In this document: piece after piece, positions 6,262-44,008 of the stretch | Position numbering within the stretch: position 1 is the stretch's first letter | How the letters are laid out: every line of letters begins with the position of its first letter | Assembly: GCF_017302975.1 (NCBI RefSeq) | Contig: NZ_JAFIMT010000003.1 | From: Corallococcus exiguus | GTDB taxonomy: Bacteria; Myxococcota; Myxococcia; Myxococcales; Myxococcaceae | Reading direction: 5' to 3' (one strand) | Length of the DNA stretch: 64,000 bases | Position numbers and translations under genes: made by a program | Notes under the pieces: model-generated | Told to the model about the DNA's origin: nothing | The model's input: the letters and a program-made list of their open reading frames with translations, nothing else | Database searches by the model: none

Positions 6262-7068
6262 TCAGAAGCCGAAGCGGACCAGGCGCGCGCGGTACGGCGT
6301 GGAGTTGCTCTTGCCCGCCAGGTCGTCCCAGCCCTTGAACTCCACGTCGTCCAGAAGCCGCTCCGTCTGACCATTGACGGTGACGGCGTTGATCAACGGG
6401 ATACCGATGGAGCCCACGTTGCGGCCCGCGAGCTGGTTGCCGGGGTCCAACGGCTCCTGCCGGCCCTGGGAGCAGCTGTCGGTGAAGTAGCAGCCCCGGT
6501 CGCAGGTGGCCTTCGAGTTGTACGAGCCATGCTTGTTCCCGGCCACGTAGATGCGCGGCGCGCCCCGGTACGCGCCCGCGTACTCGAGCTGCGCGTAGCC
6601 GTACCAGCCTGACGAATCGCACGCCGTCTCCAGGTGCGCGGCCAGGAAGGCCTGGTCCAGGTACCAGCGGCCGTCGGCGTAGTGCACGTCCAGCACCTGG
6701 AACTCGGAGTCCCCGTCGTGGGCGAAGACGTTGAAGATGCCCAGGCTGGGGATGCCGTGGTCCTCGTAGTACGCGGCCAGGTAGAAGATGCGCAGCGTGC
6801 GCAGGGCGGAGTTCAACGGCCGCGCCGCGAAGTACGGCCGGCGCGCCACGCCCTTCTCGCCCTGGGCAATCCACAGCGTGGGCATGAAGGCCGCGGCCAC
6901 CTGGAGCTCGCAGCTGTCGCTCACGCCGTCGTGGTCCGCGTCCGGCACCTGGCCCCAGCACTCCTCCGCGGACGGCAGGTTCGGGATGCCCTGCGCGAGC
7001 GCGGGAACGGACAGCAACGACAGCACCAGCACCCACACACGCGCAGGGGAACGGAGAACGGGGGTCAT
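6262..7068 (-). CDS. Secreted Cys-rich hypothetical protein with an Sec signal peptide.
   Basis: The N-terminus MTPVLRSPARVWVLVLSLLSVPALAQ is a signal peptide. GC3 codon bias is strong and at least eight Cys are spread along the protein. I do not recognise the family. Confidence 0.6.
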   Translation of the reverse strand: MTPVLRSPARVWVLVLSLLSVPALAQGIPNLPSAEECWGQVPDADHDGVSDSCELQVAAAFMPTLWIAQGEKGVARRPYFAARPLNSALRTLRIFYLAAYYEDHGIPSLGIFNVFAHDGDSEFQVLDVHYADGRWYLDQAFLAAHLETACDSSGWYGYAQLEYAGAYRGAPRIYVAGNKHGSYNSKATCDRGCYFTDSCSQGRQEPLDPGNQLAGRNVGSIGIPLINAVTVNGQTERLLDDVEFKGWDDLAGKSNSTPYRARLVRFGF

Positions 7069-7227
7069 GTGATTACCTGGAAAGAACCGCGAGGGTGACT
7101 TTCAGGGTGAGCACACGAGCGACGGAGCTGAATCCGCCCGCCAGGCCGGGGCACCTGTCCGGCGTCGGTCGAAGCGGTAGTAGAAGCGCGCCGGGACACG
7201 GACGTCCTGGAGGAGGCGGCAAGGCGG

Positions 7228-8043
7228 GTGGAGTCGAACGCGGGCAAGCCTCGGGGCCTGCTGTACCCCCGCCCGGATCCCCGGCACTTCGAGCATGTCC
7301 GCGTCCTGCCCGCGGAGGACCTGCGCCCGTGGGTCGAACACTTCTGGGCCGTGAGATGGGACCTGCGCGGGCAGCCGCCCTACCTCCAGCAGAGCCTCAG
7401 CCACCCGTCCGTGCACTGGGCCTTCCAGGACGGCACGTCGCGAGTGGGAGGCCCGCACCCGGGCCGCTTCTCCATCACGCTGGAGGGGCTGGGCGGCGTG
7501 TTCAGCATCAAGTTCCGGCCCGGTGGCTTCTTCCCCCTCGTGGGGACGCCGGTGTCCGCGCTCACGCGACGAACCGCTTCACCCGGTGCGTTGCTGGGTC
7601 CGGAGGCGCTGGAGCTGGAGGCAGCCATCCTCGCCACTGACGTCGCGCGAGACGCGGACCGCGAGCGCATCGCCCTGGCGGAGGCCTTCCTGCGGGCCCG
7701 CCTGCCCGCGCCGGATCCGAACGTGGCGCTCGTGCAGGGGCTCGTCACGCGCATCCTGGAGGACCGCGCGGTGACGAAGGTGGAGGATCTGCTCACGCCC
7801 GGAGGCCCGGGCCTGCGCACGTTGCAGCGGCTGTTCAACCGCTACGTGGGCGTGAATCCCAAGTGGGTCATCCAGCGCTACCGCCTGCATGAAGCCGCGG
7901 AGCGACTGCGCGAAACGCCGCCACCGGAGCTGGCGCGGCTGGCGCTGGAGCTGGGCTACTTCGATCAGGCGCACTTCATCCGCGACTTCCGGCGCATCGT
8001 GGGCTGCACGCCCGCCGGATACGCCCGGCAGGTGGCGCGCTAG
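7228..8043 (+). CDS. AraC-family transcriptional regulator.
   Basis: The C-terminus carries the AraC HTH signature (QAHFIRDFRRIVGCTPAGY). The N-terminal domain is uncharacterised. Confidence 0.75.
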   Translation: MESNAGKPRGLLYPRPDPRHFEHVRVLPAEDLRPWVEHFWAVRWDLRGQPPYLQQSLSHPSVHWAFQDGTSRVGGPHPGRFSITLEGLGGVFSIKFRPGGFFPLVGTPVSALTRRTASPGALLGPEALELEAAILATDVARDADRERIALAEAFLRARLPAPDPNVALVQGLVTRILEDRAVTKVEDLLTPGGPGLRTLQRLFNRYVGVNPKWVIQRYRLHEAAERLRETPPPELARLALELGYFDQAHFIRDFRRIVGCTPAGYARQVAR

Positions 8044-8639
8044 AACGTGTACTTCACGCGCGGGAACACCGCGAACGTCATGATGTTGGGCCCGAAGATG
8101 TAGCGCCCGAGCAGGTCCGCGCCCACGGAGAAGTGGTCGAAGGACGTGGCGTACTCCACGCCCACGCCCAGGCCCGCGTTGAAGGCGTTGATGGAGCGGC
8201 CCGGGTCGCCCTGATCCGGATCCACCGGCGTCGGGTCCAACCGCGTGTAGCCCGCCGCCACCTTGGGCGTCAGGTAGAAGCGGTTGGCCAGCCGCACGTG
8301 GTACGCGGCCGTCAGGTCGCCGAAGGCCACGGTGAAGTTGTCGGACAGGGCGCAGACGTTGGAGTCCGGCAGGTAGCCCGCGAAGCAGTTCTGCGCGGAG
8401 GAGCCCAGCGCGAAGTGGGCGCCCAGCGACAGCCGCTCCGTCAGGTCGTAGCCAATGCCCAACTGCACATACGACTGCGCGTTGGAGTAGCTGTTCTCGC
8501 CGCCCACCGTGAAGAAGACCCCGACGTCGGTCTCGGTGAAGAACCCCCGGCGCGGCTCGAACGGCACGCCCTCCGGCGGCGTGGCCCCCAGGGCCGGCGT
8601 CGCCAGCGCGAGCGCGGCCAACAGCAGCGACTTCCTCAC
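8040..8639 (-). CDS. Outer-membrane beta-barrel protein, GltH/NfsH-like; last gene of the Glt/Nfs-type operon.
   Basis: A signal peptide (KSLLLAALALATPALG) is followed by alternating amphipathic beta-strands, and the protein ends in Phe (…RVKYTF). I chose the GTG start preceded by GGAGG; the ORF-track start at 8765 adds an unlikely 42-aa leader. Confidence 0.6.
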   Translation of the reverse strand: MRKSLLLAALALATPALGATPPEGVPFEPRRGFFTETDVGVFFTVGGENSYSNAQSYVQLGIGYDLTERLSLGAHFALGSSAQNCFAGYLPDSNVCALSDNFTVAFGDLTAAYHVRLANRFYLTPKVAAGYTRLDPTPVDPDQGDPGRSINAFNAGLGVGVEYATSFDHFSVGADLLGRYIFGPNIMTFAVFPRVKYTF

Positions 8640-8803
8640 GACTCCTCCCGTCACGTTGTCCTCCTGCTCCCTTGCACGCCTGGCAGCAGTGGCACGGACA
8701 GTAGTGACGCCCGGCACGAAACGGCAGCGGGGAAAAACGAAAATGGCGTGGACCGTTTCGTCCACGCCATTTCGGTCTTCCAGTCTACGAAGTGCGCCCC
8801 GGA

Positions 8804-10870
8804 CTACTCAGCGGCGTCCGCACCCGAGGGCGAGAACAGCCAGGGGTACGTCACGTTCACCACGCCGCCGCCCTTGGGCTCCGGGAACTTCCAGCGGCGG
8901 ATGCGGGAGATCATGCACTGCTCCGCGGGAGAGCTGCCCAGCGTGGACTCGGACACGCTGGCGTCCGCCACCGCGCCCGCCGGGTCGATGGTGAAGGCCA
9001 CCGCGACCTTGCCGGCCAGCGACGGGTTCTTGTTCAGCTCCGACTCGTAGCAGTACTTGATCTCGTTCTGGTGCCGCCGGATGACCTTGGCGATGACGTC
9101 CTTGTCCAGGCCGCCAATCACCGTCGTCTTGCCGGGAATGACCTTGGTGACGGACTTGCCACGGCCGCCCAGGTCGATGCCACCAGAGCCGCCCGTGCCC
9201 CGGCCGTTGCCCTGGGTGCCCAGGCCGCCGATGCCCAGCGCCGTACCGCCACCGCCGTTGCCCGTGCCACGCGAACCCAGGCCGCCCACGCCGTGCGCGT
9301 CACCCATGGCCGCGCCGCCCTTGAGGCCGCCCAGCGAGTTGTTGATGCCGGTGCCGATGCCGCCCGGACCGAACACGTCGGAAGCGCCACCCTTCATGCC
9401 CTTGAGCGCGCCGAGGAGGCCCACCTTGCCCACCACCTGGCGGTCCTTCTCCTTCTTGGACTTGTCCACCACCTGGGTGCCCGGCTTGGAGGGGGCGGCC
9501 TCCTCCTGCTTCGCCTCCTCCTTGCCGAACTTGCCCTCTTCGTCCTTGGCCTTGGCCCCCTCCTCCACACCGGAGAGCTGGAGCTTCTTCGCCTCCACCT
9601 TCTTCTCCGGGGTGATGAGGAACTTGGCCACGCGCTGCTGGGACTCGAAGACGTCGTCCGCGGACTTCGTCTCCGTGTGCGGCGTCAGCAGCATGGCGGT
9701 GACGAACGCCGCCGCCGCGAGGATGCAGATGGCGGCGATCTTGAAGAAGCCGAAGTCGCGGTCGGACAGCGACGTCGCCAGGATGGCCGGCGACGGCTTC
9801 ACGTAGCGCATCACGAACGCCACCGTGCCCAGCGACACTTCCGCACGGTCATGCAGGCCCAGCGTGAAGAGCTGCTCCTGCTCCGACGTGGCGTTGTTGA
9901 GCTGACCCGCGGCGCGCAGCGCGTCCTTCGTGCGGACGTCGCCGTTGTTGGTGACGAAGACGCCAGAGCCCGCCGGAGCGCGCAGCTCGACCTTGTCGCC
10001 CTTGCTCACCGCGAGCACGTGGCGCTTGCCCACCTGCGGAGAGAAGACGGTGAAGGTGTTCTTCGCGCCCTCGCCGATGGTGACCGGTGCGCCGTCCTTG
10101 AAGTGCTGGACCTCCAGCATCTGGTCGCCCCAGAGCATGGACACCTGGAGAACCTTCGCGTCGGGCGTGGGCTGCGCATCCCGGGGCAGAGGTTCCTGCA
10201 GGTGCGGCGGAGGCTGCGGCTTGCGGGCCGCGGCCACCTGGGGCGGCGTGGCCTTGCGCGCAGCCACCGGAGGCGGCGGAGGGCCGAACACCGGGGTGGA
10301 CGTCACGTTCTGGGACACCTGCGTGCCCAGCGCGCCGCCCGCCGGAGCGGAGCGCGGCGTGCTCACCGTACCCACCACGTTCGTGGGCGCCGCGTTCATC
10401 GTGGGCCGCGGAGGTGGAGCCTGCCGCATGTTGGGAGGCACCGGAGCCGCGTGTGCCGCCGGAGGCGCCACCGGAGCCGCCGGGGGCATCACCGGGCGCT
10501 GCTGGAACACGCCGGGCTGCGCCACCGCCGCCGCCGGAGCCACCGGCCGGGGCACCTCACCGAAGAGCACCTCCACCTGCGAAGTGCCCACCGTGAGCAC
10601 GTCCCCGGGCTTGAGCGCCGTGGGGATGATGAGCTTCTGCCCAGACACCTGGGTGCCGCCTTCACTGCCCAGGTCGATGGCCGTCACGGAGCCATCGTTG
10701 TCCACCTTCAGCATCACGTGGAGGTTGGACACGCGCGGATCTTGAATCTTCACCGCCGCCTGGGCGCCCGACCCCACGATGACACTCTCCGCCTCCGAAA
10801 CCGTCTCCTGGATGGAGCCGTCCGGGGTGGTGATCCGAAGCGTCAAACCGTTTTTTCTCGCCGCCGCCAT
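8804..10870 (-). CDS. GltG/NfsG (AgmX)-like inner-membrane protein: FHA domain, Pro-rich linker, one TM helix, Gly-rich region and a TonB-C-like C-terminal domain.
   Basis: The N-terminal FHA fold reads LTLRITTPDGS…VGSG…HVMLKVDNDGSVTAIDLGSEGGTQVSGQKL. The TM helix is FGFFKIAAICILAAAAFVTAML. The C-terminus (VAFTIDPAGAV…VVNVTYPWLF) resembles TonB-C. Architecture and gene position match M. xanthus AgmX/NfsG. Confidence 0.7.
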   Translation of the reverse strand: MAAARKNGLTLRITTPDGSIQETVSEAESVIVGSGAQAAVKIQDPRVSNLHVMLKVDNDGSVTAIDLGSEGGTQVSGQKLIIPTALKPGDVLTVGTSQVEVLFGEVPRPVAPAAAVAQPGVFQQRPVMPPAAPVAPPAAHAAPVPPNMRQAPPPRPTMNAAPTNVVGTVSTPRSAPAGGALGTQVSQNVTSTPVFGPPPPPVAARKATPPQVAAARKPQPPPHLQEPLPRDAQPTPDAKVLQVSMLWGDQMLEVQHFKDGAPVTIGEGAKNTFTVFSPQVGKRHVLAVSKGDKVELRAPAGSGVFVTNNGDVRTKDALRAAGQLNNATSEQEQLFTLGLHDRAEVSLGTVAFVMRYVKPSPAILATSLSDRDFGFFKIAAICILAAAAFVTAMLLTPHTETKSADDVFESQQRVAKFLITPEKKVEAKKLQLSGVEEGAKAKDEEGKFGKEEAKQEEAAPSKPGTQVVDKSKKEKDRQVVGKVGLLGALKGMKGGASDVFGPGGIGTGINNSLGGLKGGAAMGDAHGVGGLGSRGTGNGGGGTALGIGGLGTQGNGRGTGGSGGIDLGGRGKSVTKVIPGKTTVIGGLDKDVIAKVIRRHQNEIKYCYESELNKNPSLAGKVAVAFTIDPAGAVADASVSESTLGSSPAEQCMISRIRRWKFPEPKGGGVVNVTYPWLFSPSGADAAE

Positions 10871-10926
10871 GAAGTTCTTCCTTCTTCCCTTCCCGTCCCG
10901 AAAACGTTCAACGCCACCTGTGTCGT

Positions 10927-11211
10927 CTAGAGATTGTCCGCCGACTTCTGAAGCTCCGGGTCGAAGTTCTCCCGGACCTTGATGAGGCTTTGGAAATCCG
11001 TCTTCTTGCGGTTGAGGACGTAGGAGCCCTCCGGCTTGGTGAGCTCGCCCTCCACCGCCACATCCGTGAAATCAATCACCGTCTTCTTGCGGTACACGGT
11101 GCGATCCTCCTCCTGGATGATCTTCACCGAGTCCTTGCCGTCCTGAGCAAGGGCGGGAGCCGCCACCCCCAGCCCCCCCGCCATCACCATCGCTGCCAGC
11201 AGTCGTTTCAT
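10927..11211 (-). CDS. Small periplasmic protein with a signal peptide, GltF/NfsF-like.
   Basis: About 94 aa from the internal Met (MKRLLAAMVMAGGLGVAAPALAQ). It occupies the position between the E-like and G-like genes, as in the glt/nfs operons. Confidence 0.5.
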   Translation of the reverse strand: MKRLLAAMVMAGGLGVAAPALAQDGKDSVKIIQEEDRTVYRKKTVIDFTDVAVEGELTKPEGSYVLNRKKTDFQSLIKVRENFDPELQKSADNL

Positions 11212-11370
11212 GTGATGTCTCCGCCGAGGCCCGCTTCGCGAATTCCATTGCAGGGCTCGCACCAACTCCAAGTCCCTGGATTCTAAGGGAGCCGCCCGGT
11301 CGCTTGCACCTGGGCGGCTAAAGGCGGGAAGAAAGTTCTCATCCCTCCCGCCGGGACGACTGTTGTTTCT

Positions 11371-12831
11371 TCAGGGCGTCGGAGCAGGCGACGGAGCCGT
11401 CTGTCCATTGCCGGACGCATCGTCGGACGCGGGGGCAGCCGGCTCTTCCGCCGGAGCCGTCTCCGGAGCCGCCTCGGGCGCGCTGGTGTCCTGGGGCAGC
11501 TGGTTCATCACGGACGAGCCCGCGCCCCCGGTGGCGGCGGCGTCCTTCTTCTCCTCGCCCTCGGCCTCCGCGGTGGCGGCCGGCGCCGGCGGCGGGTTCT
11601 TGAGCATGTTCTGCAGGCCGTTCACCTTGGCGGTGATGAGCTGCTTGTCCTGATCCGTCGTGGACGACAGCTCCTTGCAGCGGTCCAGGAACGCGATGGC
11701 CTTCTCGAAGGCCCCTCGCTCGGTCGCGTACGCCCAGCCCGCGCCGCACACCGCCTCCGGCTTGTCCGCGGAGCGCGCGAGCACCTTCTCGAACGCCTCG
11801 CCCGCGGCCACGCCCTTCTTCGGATCCAGGCCCTTCTGCCCGTCCAGCGCGTACGCCAGGTACAGCTGGCCCTCCAGGCCGTCCGGCTCCAGGGACAGGG
11901 CCTTGGTGAAGGCCTTCTCCGCGCCCGCGTAGTCGCGGTAGCTCAGCGCCAGGGCGCCCAGGTTGAGGTGGCCGGGCGCGAAGTTGTCATCCAGCGACAC
12001 GGCCTTCTGGAACTGGGCCAGGGCACGCGGGCGGTCGTCCATCTTCAGGTAGATCATCCCCAGCGTGTTGGAGATGGCCGGGTCGTCCTGCGCCACCTTG
12101 CGCGCGTTGATGACCAGCAGCTCCGCCAGGCGGTACTGGCCGCGGTCGTACGCCACCAGCGCCAGCGTCTTGTACGCCTCCGGGTTGTCCTTGCTGCGCG
12201 CGAGCACGCGCCGGCCGGTGGCCTCCGCCTCGTCCAGCTTGCCCGCCAGCCGGTACGTCGCGGCCAGCGCGTTGAGCACGGGCTCGTCGTGTTCATGGCC
12301 CGGCGTCTGGAGCGCCTTCGTGTACAGCGACAGGGCCTCGTCCAGCTGGCCCGCGTGCCGGTGCATCAGCCCCAGGTTCATCACGGACGGCGTGTGCGCC
12401 GGGTCCAGGGCGAGCACCTGCTCGTACGCCACGCGGGCGTCCGCCGGGCGGCCCTGCTTCTCCGCGATGACGCCCAGGTTGAAGCGCGCGTTGAGCGCCT
12501 TGGGCTGCTGTGAGACGACGGACTCGAAGCCCTTGCGAGCGGCGTCCAGGTCCCCGGCCTCGTAGGCCTTCAGGGCCTGCGCGAACTGGCCGTCCGCGTC
12601 GCCCTTCTCCGCCGGAGCGGGAGGGGGCGCGGCGGCGGGGACCGTGACGGCGGGCTTCTCCACCGCGTTCATCGCGACGGGCGTGGGCCTGGGGCCCGTG
12701 GCGCAGGCCGTGGTGAAGGCGAAGGCGAAGGCCCCCGCCAGGAACATGCGCTTGGTGCGAAAGCCGTTCATCCCCGTCGTCCCCATCCCCTTCAACTGGC
12801 TGCTGATGTCGATGCTGTGGTTCGTCTTCAC
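11371..12831 (-). CDS. TPR-repeat protein, GltE/NfsE (AglT)-like, probably a lipoprotein.
   Basis: There are several 34-aa TPR units and an N-terminal hydrophobic stretch ending in …FTTAC. The start is ATGA-coupled to the stop of the upstream D-like gene. The true start could instead be an internal Met, up to 60 nt further downstream. Confidence 0.7.
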   Translation of the reverse strand: MKTNHSIDISSQLKGMGTTGMNGFRTKRMFLAGAFAFAFTTACATGPRPTPVAMNAVEKPAVTVPAAAPPPAPAEKGDADGQFAQALKAYEAGDLDAARKGFESVVSQQPKALNARFNLGVIAEKQGRPADARVAYEQVLALDPAHTPSVMNLGLMHRHAGQLDEALSLYTKALQTPGHEHDEPVLNALAATYRLAGKLDEAEATGRRVLARSKDNPEAYKTLALVAYDRGQYRLAELLVINARKVAQDDPAISNTLGMIYLKMDDRPRALAQFQKAVSLDDNFAPGHLNLGALALSYRDYAGAEKAFTKALSLEPDGLEGQLYLAYALDGQKGLDPKKGVAAGEAFEKVLARSADKPEAVCGAGWAYATERGAFEKAIAFLDRCKELSSTTDQDKQLITAKVNGLQNMLKNPPPAPAATAEAEGEEKKDAAATGGAGSSVMNQLPQDTSAPEAAPETAPAEEPAAPASDDASGNGQTAPSPAPTP

Positions 12832-15800
12832 GGCCGCACCCCCTCGAGCGACGCGGTGGGTTCAGGCTTCGCGGGCTCCGTGCCCTCCGGCGTGGCGGCG
12901 GGCTTCGCGCCCTCGGCGGGAGATGCTTCCGGAGCGGCGGGCTTCGGATCCACGGAGGCGCTGATGGGGCCGTTGAGGTCCTTCAGCACGCCCGAGGCGA
13001 TGCGCGAATCACTGCTGCCCCGGTACGTCACCGGCTTCACCTGGGCGTAGGCACCCGGGCGCAGGCGGTTGATCTGATCCTGCGCGGCCAGCGTCCACTC
13101 GCTGTAGATGCCCAGCTCGTAGGCCTTCTGGAGCCCCTTCTCCAGGGCCTCGCTGGACTTGTCCTCCAGCGGAAGCGCCAGGTTCTCCAGCTCGCCGCGG
13201 TACATGCTGAGCTGCTCGTCATCCAGACCGGAGGGGTCCGGCGAGTCCATGATGTTGCGAGCGAAGTCCGCGTACGCGAGGCCGATGCGGGTCAGCGCCG
13301 CGATGCCCCACTCGCCGGAGCCCGTGGCGAGCACCGCCGCGTACTCCTTCTCCACGCGCTGCATCTCCTTCTGCTTGTTCGTCAGGTCGCGGCGGATGGT
13401 GGAGACGCGCGTGAACTTGATGTCGGAGAAGCGCTTCCACGTGGGCTCCAGCGCCAGGAAGCGCGCGTGGCCGTACGCGTTGAGCACCGCGGTGTCCTTG
13501 CGCACGCCCTCCGCGAGCTTGTTCCAGCCGCGCACCAGCTCGTCCTGCGCCTTCTCCTGGCCGCGCACGTCCTTCATCTTCTGGTACGCGAGCAGCTCGT
13601 GGTACCGCGCCAGGTACGCCTGCCCCGCGGCGGTGCGCGAGTCGCGGCCGTAGTCCTCCACGAACCGGTTGAAGGCGCGGGCCGCGTCGCCCCACTTCTT
13701 CTCCTTCTCCCAGACAAGGCCAATGGAGAAGGCCACCTGAGGCACGTCCTTGCGGTCCTTGAAGCGCGCCAGGTAGTTGTTCCACGCGGTGACGGCCTTC
13801 TGGGACTCGCCCAGGCCGTCGTACCAGACGCCCGCGTTGAAGAGGGCGTCGGCCACCCACTCGCCCGCCGCGTCCACCTGAGCCTTGAGCTCGGCGGCCT
13901 TCTGCGCGCGCTTGGACTCTACGTCCTCCACGGCGCCCGGCGTGTCGTCCTTCTTCGCGACGGTGGTGGCCTTGGCCTTCTCCTTGCCCTTCTTCGACTG
14001 CGTCTCGCGGGCCTTGATGGCCGCGTCGTACTCGGCCACGAAGGACTCGGACATGGCCGCGGCCTTCTTGAACTCGGCGACCTTCTCGTAGAGGCCGGAC
14101 AGCGTGTAGCGCGTCTTCAGCTCGAAGCTGCTGTTCGGGTACTCCTTGAGGACTCGCTCGCCAGCGATGATGCCCTTGTCGACCTCACCCGCCTCCTGCG
14201 CGATGACCATCGCGTAGGTGAGCGCGCGGTCCGCGTTCTCCGACTTGGGGAACTCCGTCACGAAGGTGAGGAACTCCTCGGCGGCCTTCGCCGGGTTCTT
14301 CTCCTTCTTGTAGACGACCTCATCCACGTACTTGTACTGGCTGCCCTCCACCACGCGTGAGACGCGCAGGGCGAAGTCCGAACCGGGCTTGGACAGCTTC
14401 TTGTTGCCCAGGAACTTGCGCGAGAGCGTGTTGAGCTCCTGCCACTCCTCGCGGCTCTCCAGCACGTACATGGTCAGGTCCGCGGCGTCGCGCGAGCGGC
14501 GCTCCTCCGGGAACTTCTCGATGATCTCCCCGAAGCGGCGGGCCGCGTCCACGAAGTGCGCGCGGTCGTAGAGGATGACGGCGGCCTGGTAGCGCAGGTC
14601 GATCTCATCCTGGTTGCCCGGGTAGAGGTTGTTGTACGTGTCGCACGCGGCGACCAGCCGGTCCTCGAACTTGGTGAGCGACTGCTCGGCCTGCTCCTTG
14701 GCGTCGCGCTTCACCAGCTTCTGCTTGGCGACGTCGCCCTTGTCCTTCTTCTCGTCGACCTTCTGGCCGTCCTTCAGGTCGCTCTTGGAGAGCTGGCCGC
14801 GTTCAATCTTGACGAGCTTGTCGTACGCGAGCACCGCGTTGTACGAGGCGCTCTTGCGGTAGGCCTCGTTGGAGACCTCCTTCGCGGAGTCGCGGTCCGG
14901 AATCTTGAACGCCACCACGGCGTCGTACTCACCGGCGGCGGCCTCCCACTCCTCCAGGGCCCAGAGGATTTCCGCGTAGAAGAAGCGGATGTTGAAGGCG
15001 GAGTCCGCCACGAACTCCGGGTTGTCGCTGGAGGCGAACGCGTCCACGTACTGCTTGTAGATGTCGCGCGCGAGCCGGTAGGTCTCCACCTGGCGCGTCT
15101 TCTGCGCCTCCTGGTGGTACTCGGTGACCATCACGCGCATCGCCTCTTCGGTGACGCTGAAGGCATTGCGCAGCACGCCCGCGTTGCTGGCGTTGGCGGT
15201 CCACCACTCGCCACCGGGGCGGTAGAGGTCCACCATCCGCTTCATCTCCTTGCGGACCTGCTGGCGCTGGCGCAGGCCTTCGAACGCACGCACCACCGCC
15301 TGCTGGTACTCCGGCGCGTTCGCGCCCATGGGCGAATCGTCGATGAGCGTGCGGTACACCAGGATGGCGCTGTCGAAGTGGCCCGCGTCCACCAGGCCCG
15401 CGGCCGTCTTCGCGAGCAGCCGGCCCTGGCGCTTGGCCGGAGCCTTCTGCTTGAAGTAGGCGAGCGCCTCCTTCGGCTGATCCAACTGGACGTAGAAGAC
15501 GGTGAGGTCGTTGAGGGCCTCCGTGCGCAGGTCGCCCAGCTCCTCGCCGCGCTGGCTGGCGTAGTCCACCACCTCGTGGAGCTTCTTCAGGCCCGCGTCC
15601 AGGTCGCCCGCGTTGAAGTCACACCAGGACAGCTTGTAGGTGGCGTAGGCGTAGATCTTCGGAACGCCAGAGGCGCGCGCCTTCTCGTAGTTCTCCTTCG
15701 CGGGCGCGAGCTTGTTGTTCTCGAAGTAGTGGTTGCCCAGCTGGATGTACGCGTCCGGGACGAACTGCGACTTCGGGAAGTCGCGGATCAGCTCCTCGTA

Positions 15801-16481
15801 GCGCGCCACCGCGTCCGCGCGGCGGTTGAGATCATAGAGGTTGTAGCCCAGGGAGAAGAGGACCTCGTCGCGGGCCGGGTAGTCCGGGTACTCGCTGAGG
15901 ATGGCCTCGTAGATGCGCATCGTCTCCGCGCGGTAGCGCTCGGAGTCGCGGTGGTCCTGCTCCGGCGCGGTCGCCTTCTCACCGCGCGCCACGGCGGCGT
16001 CGTAGGCCTTCTCCGCCGTGAGGAACTTCTCCATCTCCAGCTGGTAGAGGTACTTGGACTTCTCCCAGTAGAGCTCCGACAGGCGGTACTGCATCTCCGC
16101 CTTCTGCGTGGAGGTCTCCTGCAGCTTGGGGATGAGGCGCTTGAAGCCTTCAATGGCCTCGTCGCGCTTCTTGTCCGCGAGCGCGTCCTTCTTGGAGTCC
16201 GCGATGCGCGGCATGTCCGCGAACTTGGCCGTGGCGGGCTTCACCCGCGCCGGGCCCTTGCGCATGTCCTGGGGCGCCACGCCGGGTGGCAGCTCCGCCT
16301 TCTTCGCCTCCTCCTTGTCCTTCTTGCTCGCGGCCTCGGCCTTCCTGGCCGCGCCCTTCGAAGAGGACTTCTTCGTCGCCACCTTCCGCGGCGGTGCCGT
16401 CTCCTCCGCCGCCTCCCCCACCCCACCAGCCGCGAGCGCGACGCCCACCGCCAGTGCACCGAACCGAAGAACCACCTTCAT
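12828..16481 (-). CDS. Giant TPR-repeat protein, GltD/NfsD (AgmU)-like, about 1217 aa.
   Basis: A signal peptide (MKVVLRFGALAVGVALAAGG) after a GGAG RBS is followed by a Lys/Ala-rich region and more than 20 TPR-like repeats. The C-terminus is Pro/Ala-rich. The size matches AgmU/NfsD (about 1218 aa). I chose the internal Met; the ORF-track start at 16628 adds a 49-aa non-signal leader. Confidence 0.75.
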   Translation of the reverse strand: MKVVLRFGALAVGVALAAGGVGEAAEETAPPRKVATKKSSSKGAARKAEAASKKDKEEAKKAELPPGVAPQDMRKGPARVKPATAKFADMPRIADSKKDALADKKRDEAIEGFKRLIPKLQETSTQKAEMQYRLSELYWEKSKYLYQLEMEKFLTAEKAYDAAVARGEKATAPEQDHRDSERYRAETMRIYEAILSEYPDYPARDEVLFSLGYNLYDLNRRADAVARYEELIRDFPKSQFVPDAYIQLGNHYFENNKLAPAKENYEKARASGVPKIYAYATYKLSWCDFNAGDLDAGLKKLHEVVDYASQRGEELGDLRTEALNDLTVFYVQLDQPKEALAYFKQKAPAKRQGRLLAKTAAGLVDAGHFDSAILVYRTLIDDSPMGANAPEYQQAVVRAFEGLRQRQQVRKEMKRMVDLYRPGGEWWTANASNAGVLRNAFSVTEEAMRVMVTEYHQEAQKTRQVETYRLARDIYKQYVDAFASSDNPEFVADSAFNIRFFYAEILWALEEWEAAAGEYDAVVAFKIPDRDSAKEVSNEAYRKSASYNAVLAYDKLVKIERGQLSKSDLKDGQKVDEKKDKGDVAKQKLVKRDAKEQAEQSLTKFEDRLVAACDTYNNLYPGNQDEIDLRYQAAVILYDRAHFVDAARRFGEIIEKFPEERRSRDAADLTMYVLESREEWQELNTLSRKFLGNKKLSKPGSDFALRVSRVVEGSQYKYVDEVVYKKEKNPAKAAEEFLTFVTEFPKSENADRALTYAMVIAQEAGEVDKGIIAGERVLKEYPNSSFELKTRYTLSGLYEKVAEFKKAAAMSESFVAEYDAAIKARETQSKKGKEKAKATTVAKKDDTPGAVEDVESKRAQKAAELKAQVDAAGEWVADALFNAGVWYDGLGESQKAVTAWNNYLARFKDRKDVPQVAFSIGLVWEKEKKWGDAARAFNRFVEDYGRDSRTAAGQAYLARYHELLAYQKMKDVRGQEKAQDELVRGWNKLAEGVRKDTAVLNAYGHARFLALEPTWKRFSDIKFTRVSTIRRDLTNKQKEMQRVEKEYAAVLATGSGEWGIAALTRIGLAYADFARNIMDSPDPSGLDDEQLSMYRGELENLALPLEDKSSEALEKGLQKAYELGIYSEWTLAAQDQINRLRPGAYAQVKPVTYRGSSDSRIASGVLKDLNGPISASVDPKPAAPEASPAEGAKPAATPEGTEPAKPEPTASLEGVRP

Positions 16482-16741
16482 GCGAGCTCCTGGAGAACCG
16501 CGCCTCGCCTGACTGGGAAAACTTCTGCCCAATTGGGAGGGACGACGGAAAGTAGACGCGGGTACCCAGATTGAGAAGTGGCCCGGAACGTGCCTTGTGC
16601 CCCGGCGTACGCGATCACGCCGAGCCACCTTCCAGGACTCAACATCACGCGAAGAGGCCCCGTCCCCCGTGACAAACGCACGGTGGCGGGGCCTCTTGGT
16701 TGCTTCTCCTGGCGCACCGGGTGCGCCCGGCTCCTACTTGC

Positions 16742-18280
16742 CTACTTCTCCTGGCGTGCGGGGCAGCCCCGCTTGAGCGTGTACTGATAGTAGCCGATCT
16801 CGTCGATCCAGAACTCGCCCTGGAAGCGCCAGTAGTTCCACGCCGCGCCGGGCATCTTCGGGCGGTAGAGCGTCTGGCGGGTGAGCAGCGCCTTCTGGTC
16901 CACGCCCTCGGAGAAGAGGTCCTTCTCATCCAGCGCCGTCTGCACGCGGATGATCTCCGCCTGGTCGGAGAAGGTGCGGAGGTTGTCCGCGGCCTCCTTG
17001 ATGCGGTTCTTCGCCAGCGTGCCACCCACCTGGAGCAGCGTGGTGCGGATGTCCTCGAGCGACGCCACCGTCTGCGCGGCGAACGGCGTCCCGCGCCACG
17101 GGCCTTCACTGATGGCGCGCTTCTCCTGGTCCACGCGCGACAGGGTCCGCATCACTTCACGGATGCGCTCGTTGTTGCGGATCCACAGGTAGACGGCGCG
17201 CGGCAGGCGGCGGTTCTCGGAGGCCACCAGGTTGAACGCCTGGATGGGCGCCACGTCCTCGCCGGTGAAGGGCTCCAGCTGCTTCGCCATGGGGCCGTAG
17301 CGCTCGTCGAACGCGGCGAGCGTCGTCTTCACCTCGTCGTAGAGGCACGAGTAGTAATAGACGGTGGCCTTGAGGATCCACGACTCGGGCTGGAAGGCGC
17401 CCTCGAACTGAGGCGCGTGCAGCGCCTGGAGGCTGCCCAGCGCACCGCCGAAGTCCTCGTTCTGGAAGCGGGCGAAGCCGTTCTCGAACAGGGCCTGGTC
17501 CCAGAAGCGCGCGTAGCGGGGCACGCCTTCGTACGCCTTCACCGCGTCCGCGTACTCACCGCGGCGGTAGTGCACGCGGCCCAGCGCCAGCAGCGCCAGC
17601 TCGCGCGTCTCCGGCAGCTCCACCTGCGGCTCCTTGGTGTGGAGCACGGCCTGGAACGCGGCGATGGCCTCCTTGTCCAGCGTCTCCCCTTCCCCGGGAC
17701 GCCCCGGGAAGCGCGGGTCGGCCAGCACGGTGCCCAACAGGTAGCGGGCCTTCGCGTAGACGCGGCTGTCCGCGGGCACGGCCTCCAGGAGCGAGCGGGA
17801 CTCCTCGAAGCGCATGCGACGCTGGCTGGCGGTGCCGACCAGGTAGTTGATGCGCGCGAGCACCTCCTTGGGCAGCGTGACCCAGCGGTCGCGCACCTCG
17901 TCGGTGTAGGCCTGGTTGAGGATGCTGGGGATGAGGTTCTGCTCATCCAGCCGCTGCTGCATGTCCACCAGCCCCTCGATGGCCTTGAGGTACGAGGGGT
18001 GCGTGGGGCCGGCGTTGACGATGGCCGCGTAGGAGATGAAGGCCGCGACGGGCAGGTCCTTCTTGGCGAAGGTCTGCGCCAGGTAGAACTCGGCCTTGCC
18101 CTTCAGGTCCGCGTCCTCCCCTTCCGCCAGCTGCGCGAAGAGGGGGCCGGCGGCGTCGAGCTTGCCTTCGTTGAAGGCGGAGAGCGCGCGGTTGTAGGTG
18201 CCCACGTCCTGCTGGGCGAGGGCCACCGGGGACACGGCGAGGGGCCCGAGGACGACGAGGAGTCGGAGCAGTCGGGACAT
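16742..18280 (-). CDS. Periplasmic TPR-like protein, GltC/NfsC-like.
   Basis: A signal peptide (MSRLLRLLVVLGPLAVSPVALAQ) precedes TPR-like helical repeats. The gene sits between the two OMP genes and the D-like gene. Confidence 0.65.
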   Translation of the reverse strand: MSRLLRLLVVLGPLAVSPVALAQQDVGTYNRALSAFNEGKLDAAGPLFAQLAEGEDADLKGKAEFYLAQTFAKKDLPVAAFISYAAIVNAGPTHPSYLKAIEGLVDMQQRLDEQNLIPSILNQAYTDEVRDRWVTLPKEVLARINYLVGTASQRRMRFEESRSLLEAVPADSRVYAKARYLLGTVLADPRFPGRPGEGETLDKEAIAAFQAVLHTKEPQVELPETRELALLALGRVHYRRGEYADAVKAYEGVPRYARFWDQALFENGFARFQNEDFGGALGSLQALHAPQFEGAFQPESWILKATVYYYSCLYDEVKTTLAAFDERYGPMAKQLEPFTGEDVAPIQAFNLVASENRRLPRAVYLWIRNNERIREVMRTLSRVDQEKRAISEGPWRGTPFAAQTVASLEDIRTTLLQVGGTLAKNRIKEAADNLRTFSDQAEIIRVQTALDEKDLFSEGVDQKALLTRQTLYRPKMPGAAWNYWRFQGEFWIDEIGYYQYTLKRGCPARQEK

Positions 18281-18282
18281 GG

Positions 18283-19479
18283 TTAGAAGAGCACCGAGAA
18301 GCCAGCGTAGAAGCTGACGTTGTTGAGGACGTCCGACGAAGGCTCGGCGACGAGGTCCCTCCCGAGGATGATGTCCTCGCGGTAGTTCTTCTTCGTCTTC
18401 GGGTCCACGCCGTCGAACTTCGCCACCTTGCAGCTGCCGCTCAGGCTCAGGCCGTCGAAGGGCTGGTTGGCGGCACGCGCGGCCTCCAGCGCCTCGAAGT
18501 CCGCCAGGTTGCAGCCATCCACCTTGTCCACGCGCGCGGTGTAGATGAGGTCGCGCACCTCCAGGCGCAGGGCGTAGTGCTCACCGAACTGCACGCGGAA
18601 GCCGCCGCCCACCTCACCCAGGAACTTGTTGCCCGTGTCGCCGAAGCGCGCGGGCACCTGGAACGTCTGCCCCTCCACCTCGTTCGCCACTTCCGGGCGG
18701 ATGAGGTGGCGCGTCTTGCCGATGCCCGCGCCGCCGCTGAGCACCACGCTGAACTGCGCCAGCGAGTTGTTGAAGAAGGCGAACTTGCCGTAGAGCGGCG
18801 TGACTTCGACGCCCGCGTACGCGCCCCACTGGAGCAGGAGCGACGACGCGGCCTGGGCCTGCTCGCGCACCTTGTCGATGAGCTCCAGGTTGAAGTCGCT
18901 CTCGTCGGAGTACCAGTTGTACTGGCCGCCCACCTGGAGGGCGAAGTTCTCCTGCAGGTGGTAGACGTAGTTCAGCCCGGTGCCCACGTGGTTGGTGAAC
19001 TTGCCGTTCACCTGCACGACGCCGGGGTACAGCACCAGCTCGTGCTTGCCCTCGTCCGCGAAGCGCTTCTTCTGGACGATGTGGACGTTGACGTTCGGGT
19101 TGTAGAGCGGCGCGCCATTCACCAGCCGCTGCTGCTGCGCGTCCGTGGTGCGCGGCGCTTCGCCGGTGTCCAGCACCGGCGCGTCCGTGGGTGCAGTGGC
19201 GGCCGGAGCCTGGGCAGCCGGCGCGCTGTCCGCGTCGTCCTCACCGGTGACGGCGGGCGCGGACGGCGTGGCCGGCGCGGCTTCAGGAAGGGACTGGGGC
19301 ACGGCCGGCGCGTCGCGCTCGGTGCGCTGGCGCTCCGGCGGTTCAGCCGGTGAAGGAGAGGCCGGCGCGGTCGCATCCGGACCCGGAGCGGCCGGCGGCC
19401 GCGCCGGAGAGGCGCCTTGCGCGAACGCGAGGGCAGGCACCGCGGCGACGAGGAGCGCGATGGAACGGAAGGGTCGCAT
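18283..19479 (-). CDS. Outer-membrane beta-barrel protein, GltB/NfsB-like.
   Basis: A signal peptide (MRPFRSIALLVAAVPALAFAQ) and an Ala/Pro-rich linker are followed by a beta-barrel-like C-terminal half ending in Phe (…AGFSVLF). Confidence 0.6.
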   Translation of the reverse strand: MRPFRSIALLVAAVPALAFAQGASPARPPAAPGPDATAPASPSPAEPPERQRTERDAPAVPQSLPEAAPATPSAPAVTGEDDADSAPAAQAPAATAPTDAPVLDTGEAPRTTDAQQQRLVNGAPLYNPNVNVHIVQKKRFADEGKHELVLYPGVVQVNGKFTNHVGTGLNYVYHLQENFALQVGGQYNWYSDESDFNLELIDKVREQAQAASSLLLQWGAYAGVEVTPLYGKFAFFNNSLAQFSVVLSGGAGIGKTRHLIRPEVANEVEGQTFQVPARFGDTGNKFLGEVGGGFRVQFGEHYALRLEVRDLIYTARVDKVDGCNLADFEALEAARAANQPFDGLSLSGSCKVAKFDGVDPKTKKNYREDIILGRDLVAEPSSDVLNNVSFYAGFSVLF

Positions 19480-19488
19480 AGGAATGGG

Positions 19489-20307
19489 TCAGAAGGAGAA
19501 GGTGTAGCCGAGGTCGAACTGCACCAGGTGCGTGAGGCCCGGGCTGCCGGCGGGCTCGCCGGTGGGATTGCCGGCCTCCCAGTCGTCGCGCAGCAGGTTC
19601 ACGCGGTAGCTGTCCTTGAAGATCCAGTCGCGCAGCTCCAGCCGGATGCCGTGCTGCTCCTTGATGAAGAAGCGGAAGCCCAGCGCGGCGGACACCACCG
19701 GCGCCACCCGCGACTCCTTCACCCAGTAGTTCTCCGTGGCGCTGCCCCGGTCATCCACGGCCGTGCGGTTGTCACAGACGCCCGCGGCCCGGTCCACCAC
19801 CTGGGAGCACTGGATGACGGACTGGCGCTTCAGGTTGGTGAGGCCGCCGCCCGCCCAGAGGTACGTCTGGAAGTGCACCGGGATGTCCGCGACGAGGGAA
19901 ATCTTCCCGTAGATGGGAGCCCACCGCGCGCCAACGACGCCGTGCAGGCCCATCCGCCACATGTCCTCCAACTCGTCCGTGACGCGCTTGTCCTCGCGGT
20001 CCAGGAAGGACTCGGAGATGGAGCGCGCCAGGCCCGTGTGGCGGCTGACGGCGTAGCCCGCGCGAGCTTCCAGCGCGAACGTGTCGAACAGGTTGTAGGC
20101 CAGCCCGACGTCGAAGAAGTAGTGCGCCGTCAGGTGCGTCTGCACTGGCAGGCCCACGGACAGGGACACCTCCGGATGGCCCGCGGGCTTGTAGAGCCGG
20201 TTGCGGACGACCGCCGAGTCCAGGACGCCGTCTTCCTGTGCGGCGGCGCCGAGAGCCGTCAGCGAGAGGCTCAGCGCGGCGAAGACGCGAAGCGTGCGTG
20301 CGTTCAT
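19489..20307 (-). CDS. Outer-membrane beta-barrel protein, GltA/NfsA-like; first gene of the operon.
   Basis: I chose the internal Met after a GGAG RBS, giving the signal peptide MNARTLRVFAALSLSLTALGAAAQ. The protein ends in Phe (…GYTFSF) and is paralogous in character to the adjacent OMP. Confidence 0.6.
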   Translation of the reverse strand: MNARTLRVFAALSLSLTALGAAAQEDGVLDSAVVRNRLYKPAGHPEVSLSVGLPVQTHLTAHYFFDVGLAYNLFDTFALEARAGYAVSRHTGLARSISESFLDREDKRVTDELEDMWRMGLHGVVGARWAPIYGKISLVADIPVHFQTYLWAGGGLTNLKRQSVIQCSQVVDRAAGVCDNRTAVDDRGSATENYWVKESRVAPVVSAALGFRFFIKEQHGIRLELRDWIFKDSYRVNLLRDDWEAGNPTGEPAGSPGLTHLVQFDLGYTFSF

Positions 20308-20639
20308 ATCTCCTGCCCGGCCCGGGGGTGGGCCGTTGGGTGATCCGGATGGCAACCCGTCTGCTTGGACGGCGAGGCTCCGGCGTGGGACAGCGATGTG
20401 AGCACGGCGCCCATTCACCGCAAGCGGATCCCAGCGGCAGTCGGTAAAGTTTTCGCCCTTTGCCCCCAGGGCGACCAGCACTCAACGTTTCCGCGTGGAT
20501 GCGAGGCCTCCGCCCCCGCGCGCACGCGCGGACACCGCCCCCGGAAACGACGAACGCCCCGCCCGGCCACCCGAAGGTGCCCGAAGCGAGGCGTCGAATG
20601 GGGCGTTGTGTGAAGCGCCCCAGCGTCAGCGGCTGCGAA

Positions 20640-21308
20640 TTACTTCGCGGCCTTGTGCTGCGCGCGCATGGCCACCTTGATGGAGGGCCGCACGATGACG
20701 ATGCCGTCGTTGTGGCCGGCGACCGCGCCCTTCACGAGCACGAGGCCCTTCTCCACGTCCACGTCCACCACGGTCAGGTTCTGCGTGGTGACGCGATCGA
20801 CGCCGTAGTGACCCGGCATCTTCTTGTTCGGGTACGTACGGCCCGGCGTCTTACGCTGACCGATGGCGCCCGGGTGACGCTGATACTCGTGCGTACCGTG
20901 GGTCTTGGTCTGCGAACCCTTGAAGCTCCAGCGGCGCATGACGCCGGAGAAGCCGCGGCCCTTGGTCACGCCGGTGACATCCACCAGCTCGCCCTTGGTG
21001 AACATGTCCGCCTTGACGGCGTCGCCCACGTTGAAGGACGCGGCCTCCTCGGCCGTGACGCGGAACTCGCGCAGGTGGCGGCGCGGCGTGGCGCTGGCCT
21101 TCTTGAAGAAGCCGAGCTGCGGCTTGTTCAGGATCTTCTCGCGGATTTCGCCGAAGCCCACGGTCACCGCGGAGTACTGATCCTTCTCCGGGGTGCGCTT
21201 GCCGACCACCAGACAGGTGTTGACGTCGATGACCGTCACCGGAACGAGGTTGCCCTCGTCGTTGAACACCTGGGTCATGCCGATCTTCTTGCCAATCAGA
21301 CCCTTCAC
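20640..21308 (-). CDS. rplC: 50S ribosomal protein L3.
   Basis: The match is full-length: MKGLIGKKIGMTQVF…VTVIDV…VDVTGVTKGRGFSGVMRRW…GAIGQRKTPGR…LLVKGAV. It is not flanked by rpsJ or rplD, so it is a stand-alone copy. Confidence 0.85.
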   Translation of the reverse strand: MKGLIGKKIGMTQVFNDEGNLVPVTVIDVNTCLVVGKRTPEKDQYSAVTVGFGEIREKILNKPQLGFFKKASATPRRHLREFRVTAEEAASFNVGDAVKADMFTKGELVDVTGVTKGRGFSGVMRRWSFKGSQTKTHGTHEYQRHPGAIGQRKTPGRTYPNKKMPGHYGVDRVTTQNLTVVDVDVEKGLVLVKGAVAGHNDGIVIVRPSIKVAMRAQHKAAK

Positions 21309-21451
21309 GTCGTCCTCACAGCGAGCGCCCGTGGCGCTGAAAGCCCAATGAATTCAATGAACTGGCCTACACGCGTACCCGCGGCCGCCAGGAAGCGGCG
21401 CAAGATAGCAAACACGTCCTCAACGTCAAGCACCAAGGGTGGGCGTACCCC

Positions 21452-22222
21452 TCACTGCGCGACGTCCAACCGCTTGTAGAAGGGGTTGAGCTGCCCGTCC
21501 GCGATGCGCTGGGCATACACCTCTTCGCCGAGGAGGAACAGGGCCTGATCCAGATAATCTTCCGCGCCCTTGATCTCCTCCTCCTTGGTGGCGATGGCCT
21601 GGTCGAGCTCCGCCATCCGGGCGTCGTGCTGCTGCTTCTGCTCCGCCGCGGCGTCTTCCAGCTCGATCAGGCGCTTGTGCGCCAGGATGCCGGCCCCACC
21701 GGGCTGGCCGGGGGTGGGCGTGAGGGCGGTCGCCAGCTGGGACTCCCAGTCCTCCACCTCGCGCGCCAGACGCATCTGGGCGATGCGGTTCTTCTTGAGG
21801 TTCTGCTTGGCGGCGTCCAGCTTCACCGGATCCTGGGTGGTCATCTCCAGGTCCGCGAGCTTCGACTCCAGCTTCTTCAGGCCCGCGACGGCGTAGCGCA
21901 GGTCGGCGCGGCGCGTGTCCAGCGTCTTGCGCAGCCCCTTCACCTTGCCCTCCACCGCCGTCACGGCCTTCTGGAACTTGCCGGTGATCTCCCTCTGGGC
22001 GCCGCACTCGTCCTCGTGCTGCGCCAGGAAGTCCTGATAGGCCACGTCCTCGTCGTTCATCTCCGCTTCCAGCGCCGCCAGCTCGTCCCGGCGCGCCTCC
22101 AGCACCTCTTCGGCGCGGTAGACGCGTTCCATGGAGCGGGGGCAGTTCGGCTTGCCCGGGAGGACGTCCCGGGCCAGGTCGCCGAGCTGGAAGATGAGAT
22201 CGTTGTAGCTCTCCTTCGCCAT
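21452..22222 (-). CDS. Coiled-coil hypothetical protein.
   Basis: GC3 bias is strong and heptad-rich Glu/Lys/Ala segments run throughout. The likely start is MAKESYN. Confidence 0.6.
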   Translation of the reverse strand: MAKESYNDLIFQLGDLARDVLPGKPNCPRSMERVYRAEEVLEARRDELAALEAEMNDEDVAYQDFLAQHEDECGAQREITGKFQKAVTAVEGKVKGLRKTLDTRRADLRYAVAGLKKLESKLADLEMTTQDPVKLDAAKQNLKKNRIAQMRLAREVEDWESQLATALTPTPGQPGGAGILAHKRLIELEDAAAEQKQQHDARMAELDQAIATKEEEIKGAEDYLDQALFLLGEEVYAQRIADGQLNPFYKRLDVAQ

Positions 22223-22301
22223 GGGCGGAGTCATACGCCCAAGACGCCAGGACTGTCACCGGCCGAGCGCAATCCCCGCGCCCGGCCCTCTTTCCGTACC
22301 C

Positions 22302-22775
22302 TCAGGAATCCGCGGGAGCCGCGACGGCCTGGGACTCGCCCCGCCGCACCGCCGCCAGGGCCCCTTCCGCCAGGGCGAGCAGCTCCCGGGCGCGGTCCTG
22401 CTCCTCGGTCCGGTTCAGCTCGCACACCCAGGCGGATGACAGGTCCGCGTGCTGGCGCGCCATCTCTGCGGTCGTCTCATAGCGCGCGGCCGATGCTCGA
22501 GCGAAGGCCCCCTCCCGTCGCAGCTCCAGCACCGTGTCCGGATCCAGATCGATTTCCTCTGGGGGCACCGGCAGCGGCCCCCGTCCCAGCGCCGCCAGGC
22601 GGGCCAGGAGCCGTGATGCATGGGCGCGGCAGAAGGCGGCCAGCACCATCAGGCGCGCCCGGACCCGCGCGTCGTTCATGCGCTCCGCCAGCCCCGTCAT
22701 ACGACGGGCCGACACCACTTCTGCTTCCCACGCGGCGGCCAGTGCGGCTGCCAGCCGGGTATGCCTCGCTCCCAT
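22302..22775 (-). CDS. Hypothetical protein (157 aa), Ala/Arg-rich.
   Basis: The ORF fills the gap upstream of hupE with moderate codon bias. I see no recognisable motif. Confidence 0.35.
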   Translation of the reverse strand: MGARHTRLAAALAAAWEAEVVSARRMTGLAERMNDARVRARLMVLAAFCRAHASRLLARLAALGRGPLPVPPEEIDLDPDTVLELRREGAFARASAARYETTAEMARQHADLSSAWVCELNRTEEQDRARELLALAEGALAAVRRGESQAVAAPADS

Positions 22776-22830
22776 CAGCGTCCCTCCCCCACCCTCGTGA
22801 GACGCAAGCTAGGAACGCTGTTGGTGCAAT

Positions 22831-43749: not shown

Positions 43750-44008
43750 GGTCCCGGAGTCTACCCGGACCACCGTGCCCGGGGGCGTGCCCGGCGGCTT
43801 TTCTCCACCGCAAAGCCATACATCAATAACAGACGTCCCTCTCCTCACCCTGAGAGGACCCGGTGGAGGTCACTCAGCCGGAAACACCGTTTCGATGCGA
43901 CTGCAAGCCCCCTCCCCTGGGTCAAAAGTCGCCGTGAAGCGGGAGATCCAGCGGCTTGTCGGAGCCCAGGATGTTTCGTGAGACATTCGCGGGGTTCTCA
44001 ACGTTTAC

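Follow-up and report, generated by a model that had tools for sequence, protein, structure and literature searches.

A contiguous eight-gene locus of Corallococcus exiguus as the very probable orthologue of the Myxococcus xanthus spore-coat operon nfsA-H

Does the contiguous set of eight envelope-protein genes at positions 8040-20307 (minus strand) of this Corallococcus exiguus sequence (the window, a stretch of 64,000 nt from contig NZ_JAFIMT010000003.1) encode the sporulation complex Nfs, or its paralogue, the gliding complex Glt, in an ancestral contiguous arrangement? The original prediction, made from the sequence alone, recognized a Glt/Nfs-type machine in the nfs-like order A to H and held that the choice between an Nfs orthologue and an ancestral contiguous Glt complex could not be decided. 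The family assignment and the gene order are borne out by the domain series, the protein identities and the synteny with Myxococcus xanthus DK1622. As judged by sequence comparison, the locus is very probably the nfsA-H operon of Corallococcus, orthologous to the genes of the spore-coat complex, and not Glt. Contrary to the original prediction, the two could be told apart: flank synteny, identities, equivalog model scores and a tree of the D proteins decide in favor of the Nfs half of the proposed alternative and against an ancestral Glt at this locus.

Gene content and positional orthology with M. xanthus nfs

Eight co-directional open reading frames (ORFs) fill 8040-20307 on the minus strand, with coding-type G+C contents at third codon positions (0.86-0.95) in a window of about 69% G+C. 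ORF and domain scans agree with the sizes and domains first proposed for the products, namely two outer-membrane proteins, a tetratricopeptide repeat (TPR) protein, a 1217-residue TPR protein, a TPR lipoprotein, a small protein, a protein combining FHA domain, transmembrane segment and TonB_C domain, and a final outer-membrane protein. The genes, each with its predicted orthologue and its length in amino acids (aa), are as follows.

A, 19489-20307, minus strand: nfsA orthologue, outer-membrane beta-barrel, 272 aa, with signal peptide and C-terminal ...YTFSF
B, 18283-19479, minus strand: nfsB orthologue, outer-membrane beta-barrel with a Pro/Ala-rich N-terminal linker, 398 aa
C, 16742-18280, minus strand: nfsC orthologue, periplasmic or outer-membrane-associated TPR protein, 512 aa
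D, 12828-16481, minus strand: nfsD orthologue, TPR protein of 1217 aa that begins with a hydrophobic anchor or signal
E, 11371-12831, minus strand: nfsE orthologue, TPR lipoprotein (lipobox-like TTAC), 486 aa, GTG start
F, 10927-11211, minus strand: nfsF orthologue, secreted protein, 94 aa
G, 8804-10870, minus strand: nfsG orthologue, FHA domain (cytoplasmic), one transmembrane segment and TonB_C / AgmX-PglI domain (periplasmic), 688 aa
H, 8040-8639, minus strand: nfsH orthologue, small outer-membrane beta-barrel, 199 aa

Two longer frames were rejected as over-extensions: a 330-aa ORF for A, judged by the lengths of its orthologues, and a 241-aa ORF for H, which reaches 8765 and runs through a conserved hairpin, its orthologues being shorter. 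The ATG of D has CCAGGAGC just upstream, resembling the corrected start of M. xanthus nfsD.

The domain matches bear out this series. A and B match TIGR04565, a model of myxobacterial outer-membrane beta-barrels, with 189 and 72 bits (M. xanthus NfsA, 191), and H, which is likewise annotated as 199 aa in Corallococcus carmarthensis, matches OMP_b-brl; the C-terminal residue of all three is an aromatic F. TPR repeats are found in C, D and E, those of D being YbgF/CpoB-like. The 688-aa G protein has both of the domains first proposed for it, with Pfam matches to FHA (E=4e-14) and TonB_C, a single transmembrane segment at aa 378-396, and a C-terminal AgmX-PglI domain (NF033768, 121 bits vs a cut-off of 40).

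To place the locus we compared it with that of DK1622 (L002, CP000113.1:3908579-3932238), which was reached via ABF89098.1 / Q1D702, the protein that represents DK1622 in the 90%-identity cluster around the Myxococcus D orthologue. The eight DK1622 genes encode 294, 442, 512, 1219, 499, 96, 682 and 200 aa, the sizes given in Table 3 of Mueller 2010 for nfsA-H (MXAN_3371-3378) once the corrected starts of D and F (1202 and 94 aa) are taken into account, and the D start at 3918579+48 agrees with the "bp 3918630" of the same paper. Upstream, the DK1622 locus is flanked by an rplC-type L3 gene and genes of 256 and 188 aa, followed by HupE, SLT, STAS and AAA_3 ATPase genes; downstream lie typA/bipA, an alpha/beta hydrolase gene, a PocR-type sigma-54 activator gene and a cation-efflux gene. 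The window carries these flank genes on both sides, the upstream series in common being rplC, genes of 256 and 157 aa, SLT, STAS and AAA_3. Its sole addition separates H from typA and consists of an AraC-family regulator and an ORF of 268 aa, neither of which is present in M. xanthus. The shared flanks and the nfs locus also occur together in Archangium, Aggregicoccus and C. carmarthensis.

Order, orientation and intergenic pattern are likewise those of M. xanthus nfsA-H, with large C-D, E-F and G-H gaps and an overlap between D and E. In the window the gaps are 9 nt (A-B), 2 nt (B-C), 260 nt (C-D), 159 nt (E-F), 56 nt (F-G) and 164 nt (G-H); in M. xanthus they are 214 nt (C-D), 207 nt (E-F), 55 nt (F-G) and 152 nt (G-H), with D and E overlapping (Mueller 2010). 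The genes had been described as tightly spaced with several ATGA-coupled junctions. Tight spacing holds for A-B-C and D-E and fails elsewhere, where gaps run from 56 to 260 nt; no junction is ATGA, and the sole overlap, 4 nt between D and E, reads GTGA (GTG start of E, stop of D). Annotations of DK1622 and C. carmarthensis show the identical 4-nt overlap. Gene sizes are similar as well, although NfsB has 442 aa in M. xanthus and 398 aa in the window, a difference that falls within the low-complexity Pro/Ala linker. Because gene order, sizes, intergenic pattern and both flanks match DK1622, we infer that the window locus is the one-to-one positional orthologue of MXAN_3371-3378.

The proteins tell the same story. 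All eight align over their full length with DK1622 NfsA-H, at 75, 67, 80, 76, 66, 74, 71 and 78% identity for A to H, respectively; the 1217-aa protein thus has the NfsD homology expected of it (76% to MXAN_3374). NfsE is comparatively divergent (61-66% identity), as is the NfsB linker. The window D protein is 96% identical to that of C. carmarthensis and 62-80% identical to its orthologues in Myxococcus, Pyxidicoccus, Hyalangium, Archangium, Cystobacter, Melittangium, Vitiosangium and Aggregicoccus. At the DNA level, a C. carmarthensis-like contig (L087) aligns with 6264-22954 of the window at 94.1% identity, its A protein being 97% identical, which puts the source strain close to the species boundary of C. 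carmarthensis. The set of rplC with the same eight genes is also found in M. vastator, M. xanthus, A. violaceum, Aggregicoccus and a more remote contig of metagenomic origin (L085). Comparison with the C. carmarthensis-like locus gives the eight genes ratios of nonsynonymous to synonymous substitution rates (dN/dS) of 0.06-0.33, and comparison with M. xanthus gives 0.19-0.54; all eight are therefore maintained by purifying selection. Chance can be ruled out for the eight genes, because full-length orthologues in other myxobacteria are 60-98% identical and dN/dS is as low as 0.06-0.33 against the nearest locus.

A neighbor-joining tree of 52 D-family proteins (1050 columns, 100 bootstraps, midpoint rooting) places the window D protein beside the C. 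carmarthensis protein inside the NfsD clade with a bootstrap of 100, apart from GltD. The NfsD and GltD clades mirror each other by species, each with C. carmarthensis, Pyxidicoccus caerfyrddinensis, Hyalangium versicolor, Archangium minus, A. violaceum, Vitiosangium and Aggregicoccus.

Predicted function and the possibility of a changed role

What such a complex would do can be drawn from work on M. xanthus (Mueller 2010; Luciano 2011; Wartel 2013; Jakobczak 2015). There, every nfs gene is required for viable spores, and glycerol raises the expression of the locus by a factor of at least 10 within 30 min (Mueller 2010). NfsA and NfsB are outer-membrane barrels that stabilize each other and NfsC (Jakobczak 2015). 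At the onset of sporulation Nfs replaces Glt; NfsG binds AglR, and a proton-conducting AglRQS is required (Wartel 2013). Nfs units travel around the surface of the spore and pick up the Exo polymer, whose secretion sites stay fixed; the polymer thus comes to be wrapped tightly about the spore membranes (Wartel 2013).

By orthology, the eight Corallococcus products would form a sporulation-specific complex spanning the cell envelope. NfsA, NfsB and NfsH would be its outer-membrane beta-barrels, with NfsC at the periplasmic face of that membrane; the periplasm would also hold two TPR scaffolds, NfsD and the lipoprotein NfsE, and the small protein NfsF. NfsG would be the TonB-like subunit in the inner membrane, its FHA domain facing the cytoplasm. 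The AglRQS motor, encoded elsewhere, would move Nfs units round the spore and thereby wrap Exo polysaccharide tightly into a coat. The window proteins hold all the sequence features that this model needs, that is, outer-membrane barrels, TPR scaffolds, a lipoprotein and a TonB-like FHA subunit.

The design recalls the Tol-Pal and TonB-ExbBD systems, in that NfsG likewise has a TonB_C-type periplasmic domain behind one transmembrane segment and NfsD has YbgF/CpoB-like TPR repeats; AglRQS is itself described in the literature as a TolQR/ExbBD-like motor driven by the proton motive force. Nfs differs from these systems in the cytoplasmic FHA domain added to NfsG, in its dedicated outer-membrane barrels and giant TPR scaffolds, and in its cargo, which is a surface polysaccharide, whereas TonB and Tol serve siderophore import or envelope constriction.

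A true Nfs orthologue might nonetheless have taken on a shifted role in Corallococcus, for example another envelope-polymer task or coupling to a motor other than AglRQS. Experiments on nfs function come from M. xanthus; the divergence of NfsE and of the NfsB linker would fit such a shift, as would the downstream neighborhood, altered by the added AraC regulator and the 268-aa ORF. We nevertheless give this reading a slim chance: the eight genes are all intact, keep their synteny and evolve under purifying selection, and two noncoding features described below, the hairpin between G and H and the motifs ahead of nfsA, are conserved with M. xanthus. Corallococcus, moreover, makes myxospores as Myxococcus does.

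Separation from Glt and the age of the contiguous order

The domain series and gene order that identify the locus as Nfs are also those of Glt, and the same genes could in principle be the organism's gliding complex in an ancestral contiguous A-H arrangement. The GltA-K complex of Myxococcus and Corallococcus has a paralogous A-H domain series and the same envelope-spanning architecture, presumably with the same AglRQS motor acting through the G subunit. It serves gliding, whereas Nfs serves spore-coat assembly, and its genes are split into G1 (gltKBAC) and G2 (gltD-J), with the extra subunits GltI, GltJ and GltK, in contrast to the contiguous A-H genes of the window.

For a direct comparison, a first GltD-type representative was recognized by its context, D-E-F-G-H followed by a gene for a GltI-like TPR protein of about 4100 aa, with no A-C upstream; an alignment-based scan with one genome per species then gave 80 GltD loci, including those of C. 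carmarthensis CA043D, C. exercitus, other Corallococcus, M. xanthus and Archangium. Against these 80 loci the window proteins are 27-29% (D), 24-33% (E), 29-46% (F), 28-55% (G, local matches) and 28-34% (H) identical, or about 24-55% overall to GltD-H with the top values being short local matches, as opposed to 66-80% to NfsA-H. These identities agree with the range published for Nfs versus Glt, 23-42%, with 23-30% for A-C (Wartel 2013, Table S1). Homologues of A-C within 10 kb were found at none of the 80 GltD-type loci. Paralogues of GltI, GltJ and GltK are likewise absent from the window cluster, whose neighbors are rplC and the AraC-type regulator with no giant GltI- or GltJ-like gene; G2 loci carry the TPR gene of about 4100 aa.

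Scores on the NCBIfam equivalog models for Glt proteins were as follows (cut-offs in brackets; MAG, metagenome-assembled genome).

GltC model (450): window 203; M. xanthus Nfs 214
GltE model (225): window 128; M. xanthus Nfs 124; true Glt 742 (C. exercitus), 622 (MAG)
CglF/GltF model (90): window 73; M. xanthus Nfs 68; true Glt 137 (C. exercitus), 129 (MAG)
GltG model (650): window 364; M. xanthus Nfs 337; true Glt 1073 (C. exercitus), 983 (MAG)

On all four models the window products fall below the cut-off and score nearly the same as genuine Nfs proteins, whereas true GltE, GltF and GltG, including those of Corallococcus, pass by wide margins. The window D protein also lies outside the GltD clade. 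Finally, a separate glt set exists in close relatives: C. carmarthensis, which has the window's locus at 94% identity, carries a gltD locus elsewhere (L026), and the complete gltD-H cluster of C. exercitus (L034) encodes GltE, GltF and GltG proteins that exceed the equivalog cut-offs. We regard the gliding complex as having a smaller chance still of being encoded here.

Several points limit the Nfs assignment. On the Glt side, A-C are represented by the GltC model score and the published identities, so that support for these three genes is indirect. H exceeds the cut-off (70) of the NCBIfam CglE/GltH model NF033755 with a score of 212, as a gliding protein would; this pass is uninformative, since genuine NfsH (214) outscores true GltH (135-170) and the model does not discriminate between them (scored on window 8040-8765, L002:17905-18507, L003:17858-18532 and L034:17716-18354). 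The separate glt set is that of the nearest species, C. carmarthensis and C. exercitus. The window contains neither aglRQS nor exo genes, and a sporulation-specific, AglRQS-driven, Exo-wrapping function would be one transferred from M. xanthus. No sequence feature contradicts the Nfs assignment. As NF033755 ranks NfsH-type proteins above true GltH, automatic annotation would name NfsH an "adventurous gliding motility protein CglE."

That the locus is instead another Glt-like paralogous cluster of unassigned function (G4/G5 type, Luciano 2011; MXAN_1922, MXAN_1327) has a negligible probability. M. xanthus does have four gltD homologues (Luciano 2011), but G4 and G5 are excluded indirectly: in both flanks, in the sizes of all eight genes and in intergenic pattern the locus agrees with MXAN_3371-3378 (G3, that is, nfs), and its D protein is 76% identical to MXAN_3374.

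With the locus taken as nfs, the distribution of its gene order raises the further question of its age. In the D tree a split with a bootstrap of 96 divides an Nfs side, on which many metagenomic representatives stand, from a Glt side. One MAG of an uncultured member of the Myxococcales (L084, GCA_023248955.1, JAHFDP010000001.1:40889-64218) has the genes A-G, though not H, lined up without interruption behind rplC as in the window; its proteins are 30-48% identical to those of the window, with D at 37-42%, above GltD of the window's own genus (28%). A homology search with its D protein gave matches that all belong to uncultured "Myxococcales" or "Deltaproteobacteria" MAGs. This locus and the split in the D tree hint at an old contiguous order, which we treat as a lead and not a result, the tree being a neighbor-joining one rooted at its midpoint. 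It is conceivable, though on present comparisons rather unlikely, that the contiguous rplC-nfsA-G(H) module is much older than the Myxococcaceae and Archangiaceae, that NfsD-type and GltD-type proteins are two deep lineages that did not arise by a recent duplication on a terminal branch, and that the contiguous order is ancestral and the split Glt arrangement derived. A recent duplication of Nfs and Glt was proposed in 2011 (Luciano 2011).

Intergenic elements and neighboring genes

Three intergenic features of the locus may bear on its expression.

20308-20639, minus strand: rplC-nfsA intergenic region, the presumed nfsA promoter region
16482-16741, minus strand: nfsC-nfsD intergenic region, 260 nt, with a GC hairpin of about 20 bp at 16651-16696 and a conserved block at 16536-16582
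8729-8773, minus strand: nfsG-nfsH hairpin, a 14-bp GC-rich stem followed by a T-run, putatively terminator- or attenuator-like

In M. xanthus, nfsA expression is driven by the 323 bp upstream of nfsA (Mueller 2010). An alignment of six genomes from four genera shows that the corresponding spacer of the window contains an invariant rplC terminator hairpin (20545-20594) and, invariant over the four genera, the motifs AAACGTTG (20481-20492), CTTG (20418-20427) and GTGCnCACATC..CCAC (20384-20407). Upstream of nfsA, a consensus scan found no sigma-70 promoter, and no sigma-54 GG-N10-GC spacing was seen by eye. In the C-D spacer the block at 16536-16582 (...CTACTTTCCGTCGTCCCTC...) is conserved with Myxococcus, while folding of the spacer as a whole is unremarkable (z = -1.8); reverse transcription PCR across the 214-nt M. 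xanthus counterpart failed, and the authors suspected secondary structure (Mueller 2010). The G-H hairpin is near-identical in M. xanthus and C. carmarthensis and kept in Aggregicoccus with a changed loop, the Archangium sequence being different, and the G-H spacer is 81% identical to that of M. xanthus, exceeding the surrounding coding DNA. An Rfam scan of 7900-21500 returned nothing above chance.

Directly upstream of nfsA lies a stand-alone, full-length rplC (ribosomal protein uL3; 20640-21308, minus strand; TIGR03625, 270 bits vs a cut-off of 143), which aligns end to end with Thermus L3. It occupies the corresponding place in M. xanthus (MXAN_3370), Archangium, Aggregicoccus, the metagenomic contig L085 and the distant MAG locus L084. 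For a ribosomal protein it evolves fast, with 89.6% amino acid identity between Corallococcus and Myxococcus and dN/dS of 0.24-0.37, and it is possibly a second L3 copy, perhaps linked to development.

On the other side, between nfsH and typA, the AraC-family regulator (DUF6597 and HTH_18; 7228-8043, plus strand) and the 268-aa ORF without a family match (6262-7068, minus strand) are also present in C. carmarthensis. Just before typA, the C. carmarthensis-like contig has a 2.5-kb indel (L087:16764-19297, against window 6264/6265) holding a DUF6923 gene of 546 aa and a gene of 190 aa, both lacking in the window. Farther away, selA, for L-seryl-tRNA(Sec) selenium transferase, adjoins an HNH endonuclease gene (42355-43869 and 41765-42448, respectively, both minus strand), which suggests that selenocysteine is used in this genome. 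A nonribosomal peptide synthetase (NRPS) gene (C-A-T; 43982-47359, plus strand) is followed by a giant hybrid polyketide synthase/NRPS ORF (KS-AT-KR-ACP-C-A-...) of more than 5600 aa that runs past the window end at 64000; the region 43982-64000 (plus strand) is a secondary-metabolite cluster unrelated to nfs.

In conclusion, what we describe is a known Nfs system in the sister genus of Myxococcus and not a new variant, and the locus is already present in public Corallococcus genomes under generic annotation. Automatic annotation calls Nfs proteins "tetratricopeptide repeat protein" or gives them the misleading name "gliding motility protein U," and yet Nfs can be separated from Glt by synteny together with the GltC, GltE, GltF and GltG model scores. 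Studies of nfs expression may take the hairpin between G and H and the motifs ahead of nfsA as candidate regulatory sites, and the Nfs machine is conserved gene for gene and flank for flank in Corallococcus, Myxococcus, Aggregicoccus and Archangium.

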